A stretch of DNA of 32,000 nt, taken from Candidatus Saccharimonadota bacterium. Lineage in GTDB: Bacteria > Pseudomonadota > Gammaproteobacteria > Enterobacterales > Enterobacteriaceae. The notes under the pieces were generated by a model. That model was not told the origin of the DNA. It ran no database searches and saw only the letters and a list, made by a program, of their open reading frames with translations. Of this stretch, positions 6,480 through 31,189 are shown piece by piece. Location of the stretch: NCBI RefSeq assembly GCF_000973505.1, contig NZ_CP010048.1, positions 690,001 through 722,000 of the forward strand, given 5' to 3'. The number at the start of each line of letters is the position of its first letter. The stretch's first letter is position 1. Made by a program: the position numbers and the translations under genes.

Positions 6480-8327
6480 TTACAATAACTGAGATTTATC
6501 ACGTACCGCACCTTTATCAGCACTAGTAGCTAATTGAGCATATGCTTTTAAAGCAAAAGAAATATTTCTAATTCTACTACGCGGAGTCCACGCTCGATGC
6601 ATACGAGCTAATTCCATACTTTTACGACTTTCTAATTCAATATCTGAAACATTTAAAACAATACTACGATCAAAAATATTAATATCGATCATATCTCCAT
6701 CACATACTAAACCTATCAAACCAGCACTAGCAGCTTCTGGAGAAATATGACCTATAGATAAACCAGAAGTACCACCAGAAAAACGACCATCTGTAATCAA
6801 CCCACAAGATTTATCTAACTTCATAGATTTAAGAAAAGAAGTGGGATACAACATTTCTTGCATACCTGGGCCACCCTTTGGCCCTTCATAACGAATCACT
6901 ATTACAGTACCTGGTAAAATCCCACCAGACAATATAGCGTCTGACGCTTCCTCCTGACTTTCATATACTTTCGCTGTACCAGAAAATTTTCGCATATTAA
7001 ACGCCACCCCTGCGGTTTTTATTAAACACCCATTTGCAGCGAGATTCCCATAAAGTACTGCTAAACCTCCATATTGACTATATGCATATTCACAAGAACG
7101 AATACAGCCATAACGGCGATCAGTATCCAATGAAGGCCAGCGACATCTTTGAGTAAAAGCCTCACTAGTACGAATTCCTGCAGGTGCTGCAGAATACATG
7201 CTTCTTACAGAAGCATTATTAGAAACCATAACATCATAACATGTTAATATTTCTGATAATGATTTTCCAATCACATTACAAACGCCCTGATTTAAAAAAC
7301 CTGCACGATCTAATTCCCCTAAAATACCTATCACACCTCCCGCACGATGAAGATCTTCCATATAATATTGATTTGTATTTGGAGACAACTTACACAAATG
7401 AGGAATATTCCGAGATAAACGATCCACATCCGATATTGTAAAATCTATATCACCTTCCTGTGCCGAAGCTAATAAATGCAAAACAGTATTAGTTGAACCA
7501 CCCATAGCAATATCCAACATCATAGCATTTTCAAAAGCTAATTTATTAGCAATACTTCTCGGTAATACAGTGTCATCATTGTCCTCATAAAACGACTTGG
7601 TTAATTTAACAATATAGCGACCCGCATCTACAAATAATTTTTTACGATCATAATGAGTTGCCAATAAGGAACCATTTCCAGGCTGAGCCAATCCTAAAGC
7701 TTCAAGCAAACAATTCATAGAATTAGCAGTAAACATACCGGAACATGAACCACAAGTTGGACACGATAAACTTTCAATGTAACGACTATCACCATCAGAA
7801 ATAGTAGAATCAGCCCCATAAACAATAGCATCTACTAAACTTAATCTAACATTCTTATTAAAGAATACAGCTCTACCAGATTCCATGGGGCCACCAGACA
7901 CAAAAATTGTTGGAATATTTAAACGTAGAGCAGCCATCAACATCCCAGGAGTAATCTTATCACAATTAGAAATACACACCATTGCATCTACACAATGAGC
8001 ATTAATCACATACTCTATAGAATCAGCAATTAACTCTCTAGACGGCAAAGAATATAACATGCCACTATGTCCCATCGCAATTCCATCATCTATAGCAATA
8101 GTATTAAATTCTCTCGCAATACCACCACAAGCATAAATTTCTTGTGCTACCAACTGCCCTACATTTCGCAAATGAATATGACCAGGAACAAATTGACTAA
8201 AAGAATTAACAACAGCAATAATCATTTTTCCAAAATCAGAATCAGTCATACCAGTCGCACGCCATAAAGCACGAGCACCAGACATATTTCTACCAGAAAT
8301 AGTAGCAAAAGAACGGTACTTAGACAT
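6480..8327 (-). CDS. ilvD: Dihydroxy-acid dehydratase
   Basis: This is a 615-aa ORF with an ATG start. Collinear IlvD motifs include [37 protein letters not shown], the Fe-S cluster cysteines and [16 protein letters not shown]. Confidence 0.97.
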
Positions 8328-17198: not shown

Positions 17199-17411
17199 TT
17201 ATGAACGAAATAACATATTAAAACGTTTATTAAATTTATTTATACGACCATGAGAATCAATAGTACGTTGTTTGCCAGTATAAAATGGATGACAAGCACA
17301 ACACACATCTAGCACTATATCACGACTTAAAGTAGACTTGACACTAATCACATTACCACATGAACAAACTGCAGTAATTTTACCATATTTCGGATGAATA
17401 CCATATTTCAC
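17199..17411 (-). CDS. rpmE: 50S ribosomal protein L31 (zinc-ribbon type)
   Basis: The 70-aa product [20 protein letters not shown]...[15 protein letters not shown]...NKFNKRF aligns residue for residue with E. coli L31. The four Zn-ligand Cys positions are retained. The start codon is GTG (reverse complement of 17409-17411) at the position homologous to the E. coli ATG. Confidence 0.95.
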
Positions 17412-17882
17412 AATAATACTCCAAAAATTAAGCGACCAATCTTTGTCTATTAAATAAAGACATTTAAATCAATCATATTTTATTTTTTCAAACACATAAT
17501 ATATTGTAATTATAATACCACATATAACCAAAAATAAAATAAATAACAAAACACTTAAAATAAAATCATGATCATTATTTCATATAATAGAGAACATCAC
17601 TACGCTATAATTGTATTTAAATAATTTACACAAAATAACATTTTACTTTAAAAAATATACAAAACTAAAAAAAATCAACAACATATTATACAATTTTTAC
17701 ATACATACTTACATCATCAATATCTTAATGTTTAAAACATTTAAACTGCACATTCAATGAAATAGAAAATACTCAACATAAATAACAAAACAATACAAAT
17801 TAAGTCATTAATATAATTGACAAATATTCACATTTGAATACAATGCATAACATTGTAGTTTTTATTAAAATTTTACAACCTA

Positions 17883-18167
17883 ATGATTAATAAAGATTAT
17901 GTATATATAAACACCTTCCAATATAAAATAAAAAAAAATAAAAATTATTTCATAAAAACATTATACTTAATCATCACTTGGATATTGATCGGTATACTGA
18001 TTTTGCTAAATTGTTTTTGTACATATAAAAAAACATATATCAAAAATTCAAATATTACAACCACTGAACACATCACAAACAACCAACAGCAAATAAACGT
18101 AAAAATACAAACACTAAAAGAACGATGGAAATATATTGAAACACTACACAATCTGAATGCTGAATAA
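17883..18167 (+). CDS. ftsN: Truncated (minimal) cell-division protein FtsN: cytoplasmic tail, TM helix and essential-domain motif only
   Basis: The ORF runs ATG to TAA and encodes 94 aa. MINKDYV matches E. coli MAQRDYV and there is a basic patch KIKKNK. There is one TM helix, LYLIITWILIGILILLNCFCTY. KERWKYIETL matches E. coli EERWRYIKEL (W83/Y85/L89). Its location and orientation, divergent from rpmE, match E. coli ftsN once priA and cytR are deleted. G/T-rich TM codons sit in an otherwise G-poor strand. Confidence 0.68.
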   Translation: MINKDYVYINTFQYKIKKNKNYFIKTLYLIITWILIGILILLNCFCTYKKTYIKNSNITTTEHITNNQQQINVKIQTLKERWKYIETLHNLNAE

Positions 18168-18260
18168 ATAATAATACACACACGATGAATTTATTATATT
18201 AACATATAATATAATAATAATACATACACATAACATAATAGATTTATTATATTAACATAT
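18168..18260. repeat. Imperfect tandem direct repeat (two units of about 40-47 nt) with a perfect 19-nt core
   Basis: The core ATTTATTATATTAACATAT occurs at 18189-18207 and again at 18242-18260. Both copies are preceded by ATAATAATACA(C/T)ACAC...-type sequence. The repeat starts immediately after the mini-ftsN stop codon. Confidence 0.6.
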
Positions 18261-18546
18261 CATCCATCCGCAGAATAATAATCTAAATTAGCAATATTTT
18301 ACATACTACAATATAAAATTACAAAAATATAAAAAATCACAATATAATAAAAAAAAATACGAACATATTCATCATATCACTCATAATACTCTACATAAAA
18401 TAATCAACACTTCAAAAAATATTTTTAAAATATACTTAACATTATTAATTAAAAAATACCTCATTCAAAAACAAACAATCATAGCGTATAACACTAATCA
18501 TAACACTTCAAATAAAAACAACCAATTCTACCATGGAGACAAAATA

Positions 18547-19293
18547 ATGACTATATGGATTACTGGAGAAATAATAAACAACATACATTGGACCAACGAA
18601 TTATTCAGCCTAACCGTACGAGCACCAATCGAACCATTCATAGCAGGACAATTCACAAAAATTAAATTAACAATAAACGGACGGAACATTCAACGACCAT
18701 ATTCATACCTAAATTCTCCAACCAGCAAAAATTTAATTTTTTATCTAGTAACCGTCCCTAAAGGAAAATTGACTCACACTTTATATAAATTACAAACCGG
18801 AGACACCATAAAACTTACAAAACAATCATACGGAAACTTTGTAATAAACAAAATTCCACAATGTGAAAATTTATGGATGATTGCTACAGGAACAGGAATT
18901 GCACCATATTTATCAATTTTAACACATGGAAAAGGATTAGAAAAATTCACTAATATTATATTAATATACGCAGTACGATTTTCAAAACATTTACATTATA
19001 CAAATATCATCAATCAATTAAAAATAAAATACCAAAACAAACTAACAACACAAACTATTCTAAGTCAAGAAAAATCACCAGATACACTCACCGGACATGT
19101 ACAAGAACTAATCGCTAACGGTGAACTAGAAAAAAAAATAGGTTTACAATTAAAAAATAAAAACAGCCATATAATGCTTTGTGGCAACCCCAATATGATT
19201 TACGAAACACAAACACTATTAAAAGAATATTATAATATGAATCATCACTCTAATACACACCCAGGACATATCACTACAGAACGTTACTGGTAA
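18547..19293 (+). CDS. fpr: Ferredoxin/flavodoxin-NADP(+) reductase
   Basis: The ORF encodes 248 aa, the same length as E. coli Fpr. GGAG lies 8 nt upstream of the ATG. Collinear motifs are FSLTV.AP, FIAGQFTK, RPYSYLNSP, LWMIATGTGIAPYLSIL, HIMLCGNP and the C-terminal ERYW (EHYW in E. coli). Confidence 0.95.
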   Translation: MTIWITGEIINNIHWTNELFSLTVRAPIEPFIAGQFTKIKLTINGRNIQRPYSYLNSPTSKNLIFYLVTVPKGKLTHTLYKLQTGDTIKLTKQSYGNFVINKIPQCENLWMIATGTGIAPYLSILTHGKGLEKFTNIILIYAVRFSKHLHYTNIINQLKIKYQNKLTTQTILSQEKSPDTLTGHVQELIANGELEKKIGLQLKNKNSHIMLCGNPNMIYETQTLLKEYYNMNHHSNTHPGHITTERYW

Positions 19294-23829: not shown

Positions 23830-24131
23830 CAAAAACAAAACATTTAAATAAAGAACTCCCACTAATTTCAAAGCTAAATCAATAATACACAACATTTTAA
23901 ATTAAAAAATTTTAACAGCTATAACAACACATCTAAAAATACAATACACATAATCCAATCTATACAAAGTAAAAATACAAATAAACACATACAACACACA
24001 AAATAAAAATAATAAAAAAAAATAAAAAAACGTATATAACAAATTTTCTACACATCTACTATTTTTTATTTCCGAATATCTAACTACTACAACATATATT
24101 CTTAAACTTAATATTCACTATAAATTTTTAT

Positions 24132-24401
24132 TTATTTATGTATAGCACTGATTAACATAACATCTAATTTCCCCTGATCATCCAAAACATACAAATCATC
24201 AGAACCGCCTATATGCTCATTATCAAAAAAAACTTGGGGTACCGTTGTACGACCACAACGATTTACCATTTCTTCATATAATTTCACGTTATCATCAATA
24301 ACAATCTCTTCGAACAACACAGATTTTTTAATTAGCAATTCCTTAGCTCGCCGACAATAAAAACAATATTTCTTTGTATATATTTCAATTTTCATAATCA
24401 T
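24132..24401 (-). CDS. grxC: Glutaredoxin 3 (active site CFYC instead of CPYC)
   Basis: The ORF encodes 89 aa. IEIYTKKYCFYCRRAKELL, GRTTVPQVFFDNEHIGGSDDLYVLD aligns with E. coli GrxC VEIYTKETCPYCHRAKALL, GRTTVPQIFIDAQHIGGYDDLYALD. It lies next to yibN and gpsA, as in E. coli. Confidence 0.92.
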   Translation of the reverse strand: MIMKIEIYTKKYCFYCRRAKELLIKKSVLFEEIVIDDNVKLYEEMVNRCGRTTVPQVFFDNEHIGGSDDLYVLDDQGKLDVMLISAIHK

Positions 24402-24480
24402 CTAATACCTAAATATAATTTTAATTTAAAAATTTTTATTAAATAAGTTAGTTACTAATTCATTTTAAATACACAAAAAC

Positions 24481-29857: not shown

Positions 29858-31189
29858 ATGCTATACTACATTATATATAACACTATTATATATTTAATAC
29901 AACCAATAATACTAATACGACTATTGTGGCGTAGCATTAATATCCCTGCTTACCGAAAAACATGGAATGAAAGATATGGTTTTTATAATACAATAATACA
30001 ACCACGAGGAATCATACTTCATGCTGTATCAGTTGGGGAAACATTAGCAGCTATTCCATTAATTCATGCATTACAAAAAAAATATCCATCTCTAAATATC
30101 ATGCTTACATCAATGACACCAAGCGGAAAAGAAGTAGCACAATCCATACTTGGCAACACCATAAATTATGGTTATCTACCTTATGATCTACCAGGTGCAA
30201 TACGACGATTCATACATCATACTCAACCAATATTAGTAATTACATTAGAAACAGAACTATGGCCTAATCTTATAAAAATATTATATAAATACCACATTCC
30301 ATATATCATTGCTAATGCTCGACTATCTTCACAATCGGCTAATAACTACAAAAAAATAAAAAAATTTATCACTTTAATAATGCAATATGTTACTTTGATT
30401 GCTGCACAAAATAAAAAGGACGCCGAAAGATTCATTTCATTAGGATTACAAAATAAAAAAATAGCAATTACCGGCAACATAAAATTTGACGTTCCAATTA
30501 ATAATAATTTACTCAAAAAAAGCCAAACGTTAAAAAAACTATGGGCTAACAACAGATATGTATGGATAGCTAGCAGCACACATAAAGGCGAAGAAACACT
30601 ACTTTTACAAGTACATGAAAATTTACTAAAAAAAATTCCTAATTTACTCATGATACTTGCCCCACGCCACAAAGAACGATTCATTTCAGTACATAAAATT
30701 ATAACAAAAACTAAACTTAGATTTATCACACGCAGCAGCGGTCAAAATCCAACATACAATACACAAGTCATTATTATCGACACTATAGGAGAACTTACGT
30801 TATTATATGGCGTAGCTGATTTAGCATTCATAGGGGGCAGTTTAATAAAACACGGAGGACATAATCCAATAGAAGCTGCGGCACATGGAATTCCCATATT
30901 AACAGGACCTTATGTCTTTAATTTTCATGCTATTTACAATATAATGATTAAAGCAAAAGCTTCAATAAAAATAACCAACATAACTTCGCTAGAAAACAAA
31001 ATTTACACATTGCTAACAAATCAAACATATCGACTTTATTACGGGAAAAATGCCACTCATGTACTACGAACCAATCAAGGTGCCATAAAAAAATTACTAC
31101 CCTTATTAGATCATTATATTCTAACAAACGATAAACTATCAACATATCAACACATAAAAAAAAATAAATACTCCACTAATGTCTCATAA
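29858..31189 (+). CDS. waaA: 3-deoxy-D-manno-octulosonic acid (Kdo) transferase
   Basis: The ORF encodes 443 aa with an ATG start. It is collinear with E. coli WaaA/KdtA (LIQP.ILIRL, PAYRK.W.ERYGFY, LHAVSVGETLAAIPLI, ETELWPNLI, IANARLS, LIAAQN, WIASSTHKGEE, LAPRH.ERF, TRSSG, GGSL..HGGHNP.EAAAHGIP). It has a C-terminal extension of about 18 aa whose last 11 nt overlap the next gene. Confidence 0.96.
   Translation: MLYYIIYNTIIYLIQPIILIRLLWRSINIPAYRKTWNERYGFYNTIIQPRGIILHAVSVGETLAAIPLIHALQKKYPSLNIMLTSMTPSGKEVAQSILGNTINYGYLPYDLPGAIRRFIHHTQPILVITLETELWPNLIKILYKYHIPYIIANARLSSQSANNYKKIKKFITLIMQYVTLIAAQNKKDAERFISLGLQNKKIAITGNIKFDVPINNNLLKKSQTLKKLWANNRYVWIASSTHKGEETLLLQVHENLLKKIPNLLMILAPRHKERFISVHKIITKTKLRFITRSSGQNPTYNTQVIIIDTIGELTLLYGVADLAFIGGSLIKHGGHNPIEAAAHGIPILTGPYVFNFHAIYNIMIKAKASIKITNITSLENKIYTLLTNQTYRLYYGKNATHVLRTNQGAIKKLLPLLDHYILTNDKLSTYQHIKKNKYSTNVS

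Follow-up and report, generated by a model that had tools for sequence, protein, structure and literature searches.

A small open reading frame at the ftsN position

The DNA analyzed here, referred to as the window, is a stretch of 32,000 nucleotides (nt) from the genome of Blochmannia turneri (749,321 bp); the product of its fpr gene is 100% identical to an NCBI protein from the Blochmannia endosymbiont of Polyrhachis (Hedomyrma) turneri. Between rpmE and fpr the window contains an unannotated open reading frame (ORF), which we call mini-ftsN, whose product resembles the N-terminal region of the cell division protein FtsN. The frame runs from ATG at 17883 to TAA at 18165–18167 on the + strand and encodes a protein of 94 amino acids (aa), MINKDYVYINTFQYKIKKNKNYFIKTLYLIITWILIGILILLNCFCTYKKTYIKNSNITTTEHITNNQQQINVKIQTLKERWKYIETLHNLNAE. 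No earlier start codon is present in the open frame, and the sequence is the same in the independent read assembly L002. The ORF, its parts and its two neighbors are as follows.

17883–18167, + strand: mini-ftsN ORF, 94 codons plus TAA; matches a profile hidden Markov model (HMM) of the FtsN N-terminal region
17883–17957, + strand: predicted cytoplasmic tail, aa 1–25; MINKDYV (Asp5, Tyr6, Val7), then the basic patch KIKKNK
17930–17938, + strand: A9 homopolymer, in frame, within the basic patch
17958–18020, + strand: predicted transmembrane (TM) helix, aa 26–46 (TLYLIITWILIGILILLNCFC), from KD19 hydropathy, G content and AlphaFold2 (pLDDT 86–95)
18021–18110, + strand: short spacer, predicted periplasmic, aa 47–76; weakly conserved, predicted disordered (pLDDT <50 at 57–74)
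18117–18146, + strand: EFtsN-type essential motif K79-E-R-W82-K-Y84-I-E-T-L88, from BLASTP, consensus and alignment
18147–18167, + strand: C-terminal tail HNLNAE (six codons) and TAA; no linker, no SPOR domain
17199–17411, − strand: rpmE (ribosomal protein L31), divergent upstream neighbor and synteny anchor; Pfam Ribosomal_L31
18547–19293, + strand: fpr (ferredoxin-NADP reductase), downstream neighbor and synteny anchor, with tpiA next

The gene order in the window is rho-trxA-ilvCADE(M)G-tRNAs-murI-metF-metB-rpmE-[ORF]-fpr-tpiA-pfkA-cysE-gpsA-yibN-hldD, and fpr starts 380 nt downstream of the ORF. In E. coli K-12, priA, cytR, ftsN, hslVU, menA, rraA, zapB and glpFKX lie between these two genes, rpmE and fpr. 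Relative to rpmE, the ORF agrees in position and strand with E. coli ftsN, which lies on the same strand in the order priA-cytR-ftsN-hslVU.

An earlier note on this DNA, made from the sequence alone, had placed the ORF divergently from rpmE where ftsN would lie, and both the coordinates and the E. coli gene order agree with this. The parts that the note had assigned to the product are also present. The N-terminal MINKDYV corresponds to MAQRDYV of E. coli FtsN, and its conserved Asp (D5) is invariant in the multiple alignment described below. The basic patch KIKKNK precedes a single TM helix, whose KD19 maximum is 2.54 at residues 27–45, compared with 2.40 in E. coli FtsN. KERWKYIETL corresponds to EERWRYIKEL, with W82, Y84 and L88 opposite W83, Y85 and L89. 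Residues 77–94 hold this motif, and the frame ends six codons past L88. The linker and the SPOR domain are gone, as had been proposed: searches with full-length E. coli FtsN (tblastn) find no remnant of either one downstream of the ORF in B. turneri or at the corresponding locus of B. obliquus, and the ORF product has no SPOR match in Pfam.

Several properties of the product are those expected of an FtsN N-terminus. The tail is rich in Lys and the net charge ahead of the TM segment is +5; by the positive-inside rule, an N-in (type II) topology is predicted, as in FtsN. The motif W82-K-Y84-I85-E-T-L88, which follows K-E-R, satisfies the consensus published for the essential peptide, (W/Y/L/F)x(Y/F/L)hxxL, in which the Leu is invariant (bioRxiv 10.1101/2023.05.12.540521), and its distance from the TM helix is in keeping with the 25–35 residues or so expected in FtsN. 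An AlphaFold2 monomer model contains a confident TM helix, disorder at 57–74 and a helix at 78–93 (pLDDT about 81). The alignment supplied to AlphaFold2 was one of FtsN, so the model is not independent evidence and is given little weight. A search by sequence found no solved structure of the FtsN N-terminal region.

Compared with E. coli FtsN, the elements occur in the same order and at nearly equal residue numbers: M-x-x-[KR]-D-Y-V, the basic patch, a TM segment with predicted N-in orientation, and ERW-x-YI-x-x-L at 79–88 in the ORF versus 80–89 in E. coli, encoded at the same position and in the same orientation relative to rpmE. The two proteins differ in length (94 versus 319 aa), and the ORF product lacks the Gln-rich linker, the SPOR domain and the LPPKP lead-in to the motif. 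Because the SPOR domain is dispensable for essential activity in E. coli, its absence counts against membership in the full-architecture family, but does not speak against an origin from ftsN or a mechanism like that of FtsN.

The ORF is related to the N-terminal region of FtsN

To quantify the resemblance we used a profile HMM trained on the N-terminal regions of 12 FtsN proteins from free-living Enterobacterales and from Sodalis; Blochmannia sequences were kept out of it. The ORF product scores 16.6 bits, corresponding to E = 3.9e-7 for a single target, or about 1e-4 when 260 ORFs are searched. The alignment runs end to end, over HMM positions 1–91 and ORF residues 1–90, which upholds the collinearity with FtsN claimed earlier. 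In 20,000 shuffles that preserve composition, the score of the ORF is never attained (maximum 11.6 bits), nor is that of its B. obliquus homologue described below, a null that covers composition and not the generic layout of a basic tail followed by a TM segment that many bitopic proteins have. The HMM was also used to rank the stop-to-stop segments no shorter than 60 aa, 260 in total, that occur in the window and in seven Blochmannia loci: a segment from B. obliquus comes first at 46.5, followed by the ORF at 16.1 and the next segment at 4.4. An antisense ORF of 78 aa with a GTG start (17945–18181, − strand), which overlaps nearly the whole of mini-ftsN, is unremarkable in this ranking, and nothing else, in an analysis that included no family search with it, marks it as a gene.

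In an unguided 12-sequence MAFFT alignment with FtsN N-terminal regions (A3), residues M1, D5, Y6, V7, R81, W82, Y84, I85 and L88 of the ORF product fall in invariant columns. In this alignment it is about 23–30% identical to the other sequences, with 26% for E. coli FtsN. A BLASTP comparison with the E. coli protein aligns KERWKYIETLHN with EERWRYIKELES (residues 79–90 versus 80–91), a match of 12 residues with E = 0.006.

The match is also specific among the genes of this region. Of the 16 E. coli proteins encoded from metB to fpr, only FtsN gives a significant tblastn match to the Blochmannia gaps (in B. obliquus, E = 4e-8). For priA, cytR, hslV, hslU, menA, rraA, zapB, glpF, glpK, glpX, yiiX and metJ the matches are noise (E >=0.3). 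This rules out that the ORF is what remains of priA, cytR, hslVU or some other gene lost from the locus. Rfam and ARAGORN report no RNA gene at the site of the ORF.

Other matches were considered and rejected. In Pfam and NCBIfam the ORF product gives sub-threshold matches to WBP-1 and CoxB, which we judge spurious. A phmmer search of 1.84 billion representative proteins yields two matches (E = 8e-5 and 4e-4); both are tandem-repeat proteins in which a weak 26-residue match is summed over the repeats, and we regard them as artefacts. Comparison of the B. turneri and B. obliquus gaps by blastn with lax scoring produces many non-collinear AT-rich matches and is uninformative. The sole match in a contig profile scan with the B. 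turneri and B. obliquus alignment is a chance LKERWKYIE in Chryseolinea sp. H1M3-3 (L012 3001–3075), where SLKERWKYIEQTH lies within an unrelated, cytoplasmic enzyme-like ORF of 533 aa. As this 9-mer recurs by chance, the motif alone is not diagnostic.

An intermediate form at the orthologous locus of B. obliquus

The segment ranked first by the HMM is an unannotated homologue in B. obliquus.

7157–7436 of locus L005 (CP010049): ftsN homologue of B. obliquus; GTG start; in the rpmE-fpr spacer

The homologue starts GTG-ATC-AAC-AAA-GAC-TAC (VINKDYINIDSKKK) and then enters a tract of ten A residues (A10; L005 7190–7199). Beyond this tract the sequence goes on one frame over, ending in QKKHKKLTSNHNRIKYTRLIIITLLIFYVIFIYYIYSNKLQKNAVISKTKISEYNQKISTNLPPKPKEKWHYIKELKR and a stop codon. 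If one A is dropped from the tract, the result is a product of 92 aa that ends in LPPKPKEKWHYIKELKR. This corrected product aligns end to end with the FtsN N-terminal HMM at 50.1 bits (E = 1.4e-17), and is thus much nearer to free-living FtsN than the B. turneri ORF is (50 versus 16.6 bits). At its end, LPPKPKEKWHYIKEL aligns with E. coli LPPKPEERWRYIKEL, with 12 of 15 residues identical. It begins MINKDY, has one TM helix and carries the motif KEKWHYIKEL, with the stop two codons past the motif Leu.

The B. turneri and B. obliquus products are collinear and 30% identical (E = 5e-5). They share the orthologous rpmE-fpr locus, the MINKDY start, a single TM helix, W-x-Y-I-x-x-L and an early stop. 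The B. obliquus homologue differs in its GTG start, in the frame split at A10 and in having kept LPPKP. Where B. obliquus has the out-of-frame A10, B. turneri has the in-frame A9. Either the B. obliquus gene may require rescue by slippage at A10, or the extra A may be a sequencing error; the Blochmannia genome paper holds homopolymer frameshifts to be rescuable by polymerase slippage (PMC4389277).

This intermediate form at the same locus is the decisive evidence for the homology of the ORF. The profile match and the genomic position are two further lines of evidence. A fourth is that no other ftsN is annotated: the published annotation contains no ftsN or other SPOR gene elsewhere in the genome (Table S3, PMC4389277). 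With four independent lines in agreement, we have very little doubt that the ORF descends from ftsN.

Evidence of constraint on the coding sequence

The strand asymmetry of the window is very strong and uniform over positions 1–32000 (GC skew −0.21 to −0.44, AT skew +0.13 to +0.30). Around the ORF the + strand is poor in G, with a GC skew of about −0.35, and the spacers flanking the ORF contain 3.8% G. Since noncoding + strand DNA has only about 4% G, codons that contain G are a sensitive marker of constraint on the + strand of the window. The TM and E segments contain 14–15% G (17 G in 117 nt; 14.3% for the TM segment alone) versus 3.8% in the flanks (binomial P = 2e-6). That the TM codons argue for selection on a G-poor strand had been proposed before; the argument holds and becomes sharper with the E segment included. 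The length of the frame is also unusual: + strand ORFs of at least 94 codons occur in 0.14–0.5% of simulated gaps (P = 0.001–0.005).

Conservation between the two lineages is concentrated where function would place it. In 16 functional columns, set beforehand from E. coli work (residues 1–6 and 79–88), B. turneri and B. obliquus are identical at 12, compared with 15 of the 71 columns elsewhere (permutation P = 1e-4). Residues 1–6 are the same in both proteins, and codons 2–6 show four synonymous third-position differences and no replacements. The fpr products of the two symbionts are only 54% identical, indicating that the lineages are deeply split.

The published annotation also lists the genes for the proteins with which FtsN would work. 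Retained in all three Blochmannia lineages are ftsA, ftsQ, ftsL, ftsB, ftsW, ftsI, ftsZ, ftsK, mrcB, lpoB, amiB and nlpD, and unlisted for all three are ftsN, rlpA, dedD, damX, zipA and envC (Table S3, PMC4389277). These partner genes lie outside the window, and their presence is taken from that annotation.

Proposed function of the product

Based on these analyses, we consider it probable that the ORF is the B. turneri orthologue of ftsN, cut down to the tail, the TM helix and the E peptide, and that its product would be a minimal FtsN, tethered through FtsA, that activates FtsWI without SPOR feedback. Homology, architecture, the pattern of conservation and the retention of partners are established by the data; expression, topology, binding and activity are inferred, with the mechanism drawn from work on E. 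coli. The protein would insert N-in as a bitopic inner-membrane protein. In E. coli the cytoplasmic tail of FtsN binds FtsA, and the D5N substitution weakens binding (PMC9525312); the MINKDYV tail, through Asp5, would likewise bind the FtsA 1C subdomain, and this would be its sole remaining route to the division site. The E peptide of E. coli, with the critical residues W83, Y85 and L89, binds FtsL(AWI)/FtsI and activates FtsWI (bioRxiv 10.1101/2023.05.12.540521). In B. turneri, the periplasmic helix W82-x-Y84-I-x-x-L88 would dock on FtsL(AWI)/FtsI and switch on septal peptidoglycan synthesis by FtsWI. The helix may stimulate PBP1b too. The SPOR domain, nonessential in E. coli, concentrates FtsN at the septum by way of denuded glycans (bioRxiv 10.1101/2023.05.12.540521). 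A product that has no SPOR domain would not undergo self-reinforcing recruitment to these glycans. The conserved positions single out the residues identified by mutagenesis in E. coli (Asp5 and the Trp, Tyr and Leu of the motif), so that evolution lends independent support to the two-contact model of FtsN action.

Several observations weigh against a functional ftsN in B. turneri. Curated FtsN models in NCBIfam and Pfam give no FtsN match to the ORF at E values up to 10. A word-indexed search of 5.8 billion proteins with the ORF alone returns no match, and an exhaustive single-sequence search of the 1.84 billion representatives does not detect the ORF as FtsN. The composition-preserving null, as noted above, leaves the generic bitopic layout uncovered. 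The Shine-Dalgarno match of the ORF is the weakest among the 23 genes of the window (2/5), with 8 of the other 22 at only 3/5. The tail and spacer have a noncoding-like composition (6 G in 165 nt, P = 0.59). LPPKP, found ahead of the motif in all other FtsN proteins, is missing from the B. turneri ORF. The B. obliquus copy is frameshifted at its A10 tract. Finally, no ftsN-like ORF or motif is present in the seven Camponotus-clade spacers examined (L003, L004, L006, L007 and L009–L011). This clade is without the gene and has the partner genes, implying that FtsN-type activation is not indispensable in Blochmannia.

The explanation that survives best beside a minimal functional FtsN is that mini-ftsN is a true ftsN relic without function, a pseudogene fragment whose frame is open by chance in B. 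turneri and which is heading for the loss seen in the Camponotus clade. The frameshift in B. obliquus, a symbiont with the most pseudogenes of any Blochmannia (PMC4389277), is in keeping with decay, as are the complete disappearance of the gene from the seven Camponotus-clade loci, the want of a Shine-Dalgarno match, the noncoding-like tail and spacer, and the loss of LPPKP in B. turneri. However, a neutral frame of 94 codons is unlikely to stay open in stop-rich sequence after a split of ~40 million years (My) that has left fpr 54% identical, as the simulated gaps indicate. Nor would a decaying fragment be expected to keep 12 of 16 functional columns, to accumulate synonymous changes only in codons 2–6, or to have G-rich TM and E codons against a background of 3.8% G. 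In B. obliquus the frame past A10 stays open over 78 codons and departs very little from the consensus of free-living species, and homopolymer frameshifts of this kind are deemed rescuable by slippage in the Blochmannia literature. On balance we think a non-functional relic rather unlikely.

A second possibility is that the ORF descends from ftsN and works, but has ceased to trigger the divisome, either having taken another role as a small membrane protein or acting on PBP1b only rather than on FtsQLB/FtsWI. The E peptide is reported to stimulate PBP1b in vitro, and mrcB and lpoB are retained; moreover, the Camponotus clade divides without the gene. We consider a changed function very improbable, as the conserved residues are exactly those for binding FtsA (D5) and for contacting FtsL/FtsI (W, Y, L), and no other conserved feature of the protein supports a different role. 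A chance ORF in AT-rich spacer DNA with a coincidental likeness to FtsN is close to refuted: the 12-residue extent of the BLASTP match, the lack of matches to curated models and in large protein databases, and the Chryseolinea 9-mer would fit it, but it is contradicted by the end-to-end profile alignment (empirical P <5e-5), the syntenic B. obliquus intermediate at 50 bits with its collinear alignment to B. turneri, the ORF-length null, and the correct position and strand relative to rpmE.

Distribution and evolution of the gene in Blochmannia

The comparison of rpmE-fpr loci covered the symbiont of Colobopsis obliquus (L005), three Camponotus symbionts (L003/L004, L006 and L007/L008) and three further Camponotus-clade read assemblies (L009–L011). 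At every locus rpmE and fpr are separated by a spacer of 0.7–1.6 kb in which no gene is called on the + strand. In the Camponotus clade these spacers measure 715–1558 nt, which is much noncoding DNA for genomes of about 0.75–0.79 Mb. One of the loci, L006, has a short − strand ORF of 46 aa called beside rpmE.

Conservation in sister genomes, which the earlier note had proposed as a check, is therefore found in part: a homologue is present at the B. obliquus locus, but it is frameshifted, and seven Camponotus-clade loci have no gene. Published work gives the tree as (obliquus, (turneri, Camponotus s.s.)) and puts the age of the symbiosis at about 40 My. An ORF common to two deep lineages implies that the last common Blochmannia ancestor had the mini-gene. 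Either the ancestral ftsN was already truncated, or both lineages independently pruned it to the same module. The gene would then have persisted in the B. turneri and B. obliquus lineages and been lost on the Camponotus-clade branch.

As a tentative scenario, which we regard as possible and no stronger, Blochmannia may represent a natural experiment in two steps. FtsN would have been cut at least about 40 My ago to the module that is sufficient in E. coli (tail, TM helix and E peptide) and maintained by selection in two lineages; the Camponotus clade would later have come to live without FtsN, compensated by substitutions of the 'superfission' type in FtsL, FtsB, FtsW, FtsI or FtsA, changes that would be legible in genomes already sequenced. 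FtsA, FtsQLB and FtsWI are kept in all Blochmannia lineages, whether or not they have the gene, and the contrast between the two kinds of lineage offers a comparative system in which to look for natural substitutions that bypass FtsN.

The gene inventory of Blochmannia is corrected accordingly. ftsN had been held absent, with no entry in the ortholog table and no call in either annotated genome. As two deep lineages encode a minimal ftsN, the gene belongs in the set reconstructed for the ancestor.

Comparison with other reduced FtsN proteins

Loss of the C-terminal part of FtsN has precedents. E. coli FtsN truncations without a SPOR domain, FtsN 1–119 and an exported E peptide, still support division (bioRxiv 10.1101/2023.05.12.540521; also as cited in PMC5013485). 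A shrunken FtsN was reported in Serratia symbiotica SCc and STs, and its authors tied the shrinkage to E. coli FtsN(1–119) (Manzano-Marin & Latorre 2016, PMC5013485). These proteins differ from mini-FtsN in belonging to another lineage, in being much younger reductions, in being annotated and in their high conservation relative to free-living Serratia. 'Ca. Pantoea carbekii' has an intact 387-nt N-terminal part of ftsN beside a decayed SPOR region, and the FtsN of Ishikawaella is 170 aa long (Kenyon et al. 2015, PMC4350177). In both, as in the ORF, the C-terminal part of FtsN is eroded in a host-restricted member of the Enterobacterales and the N-terminal part is intact. Their products are longer, however, and in P. 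carbekii SPOR debris is visible and the gene is annotated as a pseudogene, in contrast to Blochmannia, where no debris remains.

Two annotated FtsN proteins of Sodalis also lack the SPOR domain: that of Sodalis sp. Fse (P0226, 106 aa) and that of a Sodalis metagenome-assembled genome (P0211, 168 aa). Like the ORF, they come from reduced genomes and keep the tail and the TM helix. They also retain LPPKPEERWRYIKEL, and they differ from the ORF in being 50–53% identical to E. coli FtsN. In Sodalis sp. Fse (CP072937; L013 5001–5400) the truncation is a recent frameshift, and the linker, LTDAQRESLEQMQAE, runs on in another frame directly downstream. About 1.6–2 kb on each side of this gene is without a called gene, which fits a pseudogene-rich genome.

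The ORF, in a 749-kb genome and with tail, TM helix and E region kept and SPOR lost, shares this pattern of domain-eroded FtsN in symbionts. The earlier note had described it as a natural replica of the laboratory deletion mapping of FtsN. The architecture is as that description requires, but its novelty was overstated, as the idea is published (PMC5013485) and touched on elsewhere (PMC4350177). Symbionts whose FtsN is eroded from the C-terminus have been published before, and Blochmannia provides a new and extreme example rather than a new principle. What is new is that the gene is unannotated and very small (92–94 aa, ending 2–6 residues past the motif Leu), that it is ancient and common to two deep lineages, and that it was later lost cleanly in a sister clade that keeps the partners. 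To our knowledge, the 92–94 aa products are among the smallest natural derivatives of FtsN.

Expression signals and annotation of the locus

Upstream of the ORF lies a candidate promoter.

17817–17844, + strand: sigma-70-like promoter candidate, TTGACA, 16 nt, TACAAT; 11/12 match, 39 nt upstream of the ATG

Counting both strands, the 32-kb window has only two promoter matches that reach 11/12, and the chance that one would fall in the 471-nt upstream flank is 0.06. This candidate is suggestive only, and B. obliquus has no counterpart at 11/12, its best match being 9/12. The other match (31113–31142, − strand; TTGATA, 18 nt, TATAAT) lies inside a + strand ORF at 29858–31189.

No protein identical to the ORF product occurs in the protein collection, where it has never been called as a gene, and Table S3 places fpr directly after rpmE (PMC4389277). 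The published annotation dropped genes without a hit outside Blochmannia below 1e-5 and searched intergenic regions by BLASTX at 1e-5 (PMC4389277). The ORF cannot pass either filter, which explains why it went unnoticed. A real gene was thus lost to a rule requiring a match below 1e-5 outside Blochmannia, a point of relevance to the discovery of small proteins in fast-evolving reduced genomes.

Two further features of the window concern noncoding DNA. An imperfect tandem duplication of ~50 nt extends from the stop codon of the ORF (18167–18263, consisting of 18167–18212 and 18213–18263), with sub-blocks 84–94% identical; it contains no terminator-like hairpin, and no intrinsic terminator was found 3' of the ORF. 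Farther downstream, at 23896–24480, the window holds just 586 nt between gpsA and the rhodanese gene yibN, where sister Blochmannia have secB and grxC. This gap agrees with the published gene table, in which B. turneri has lost secB and kept grxC (Table S3, PMC4389277).

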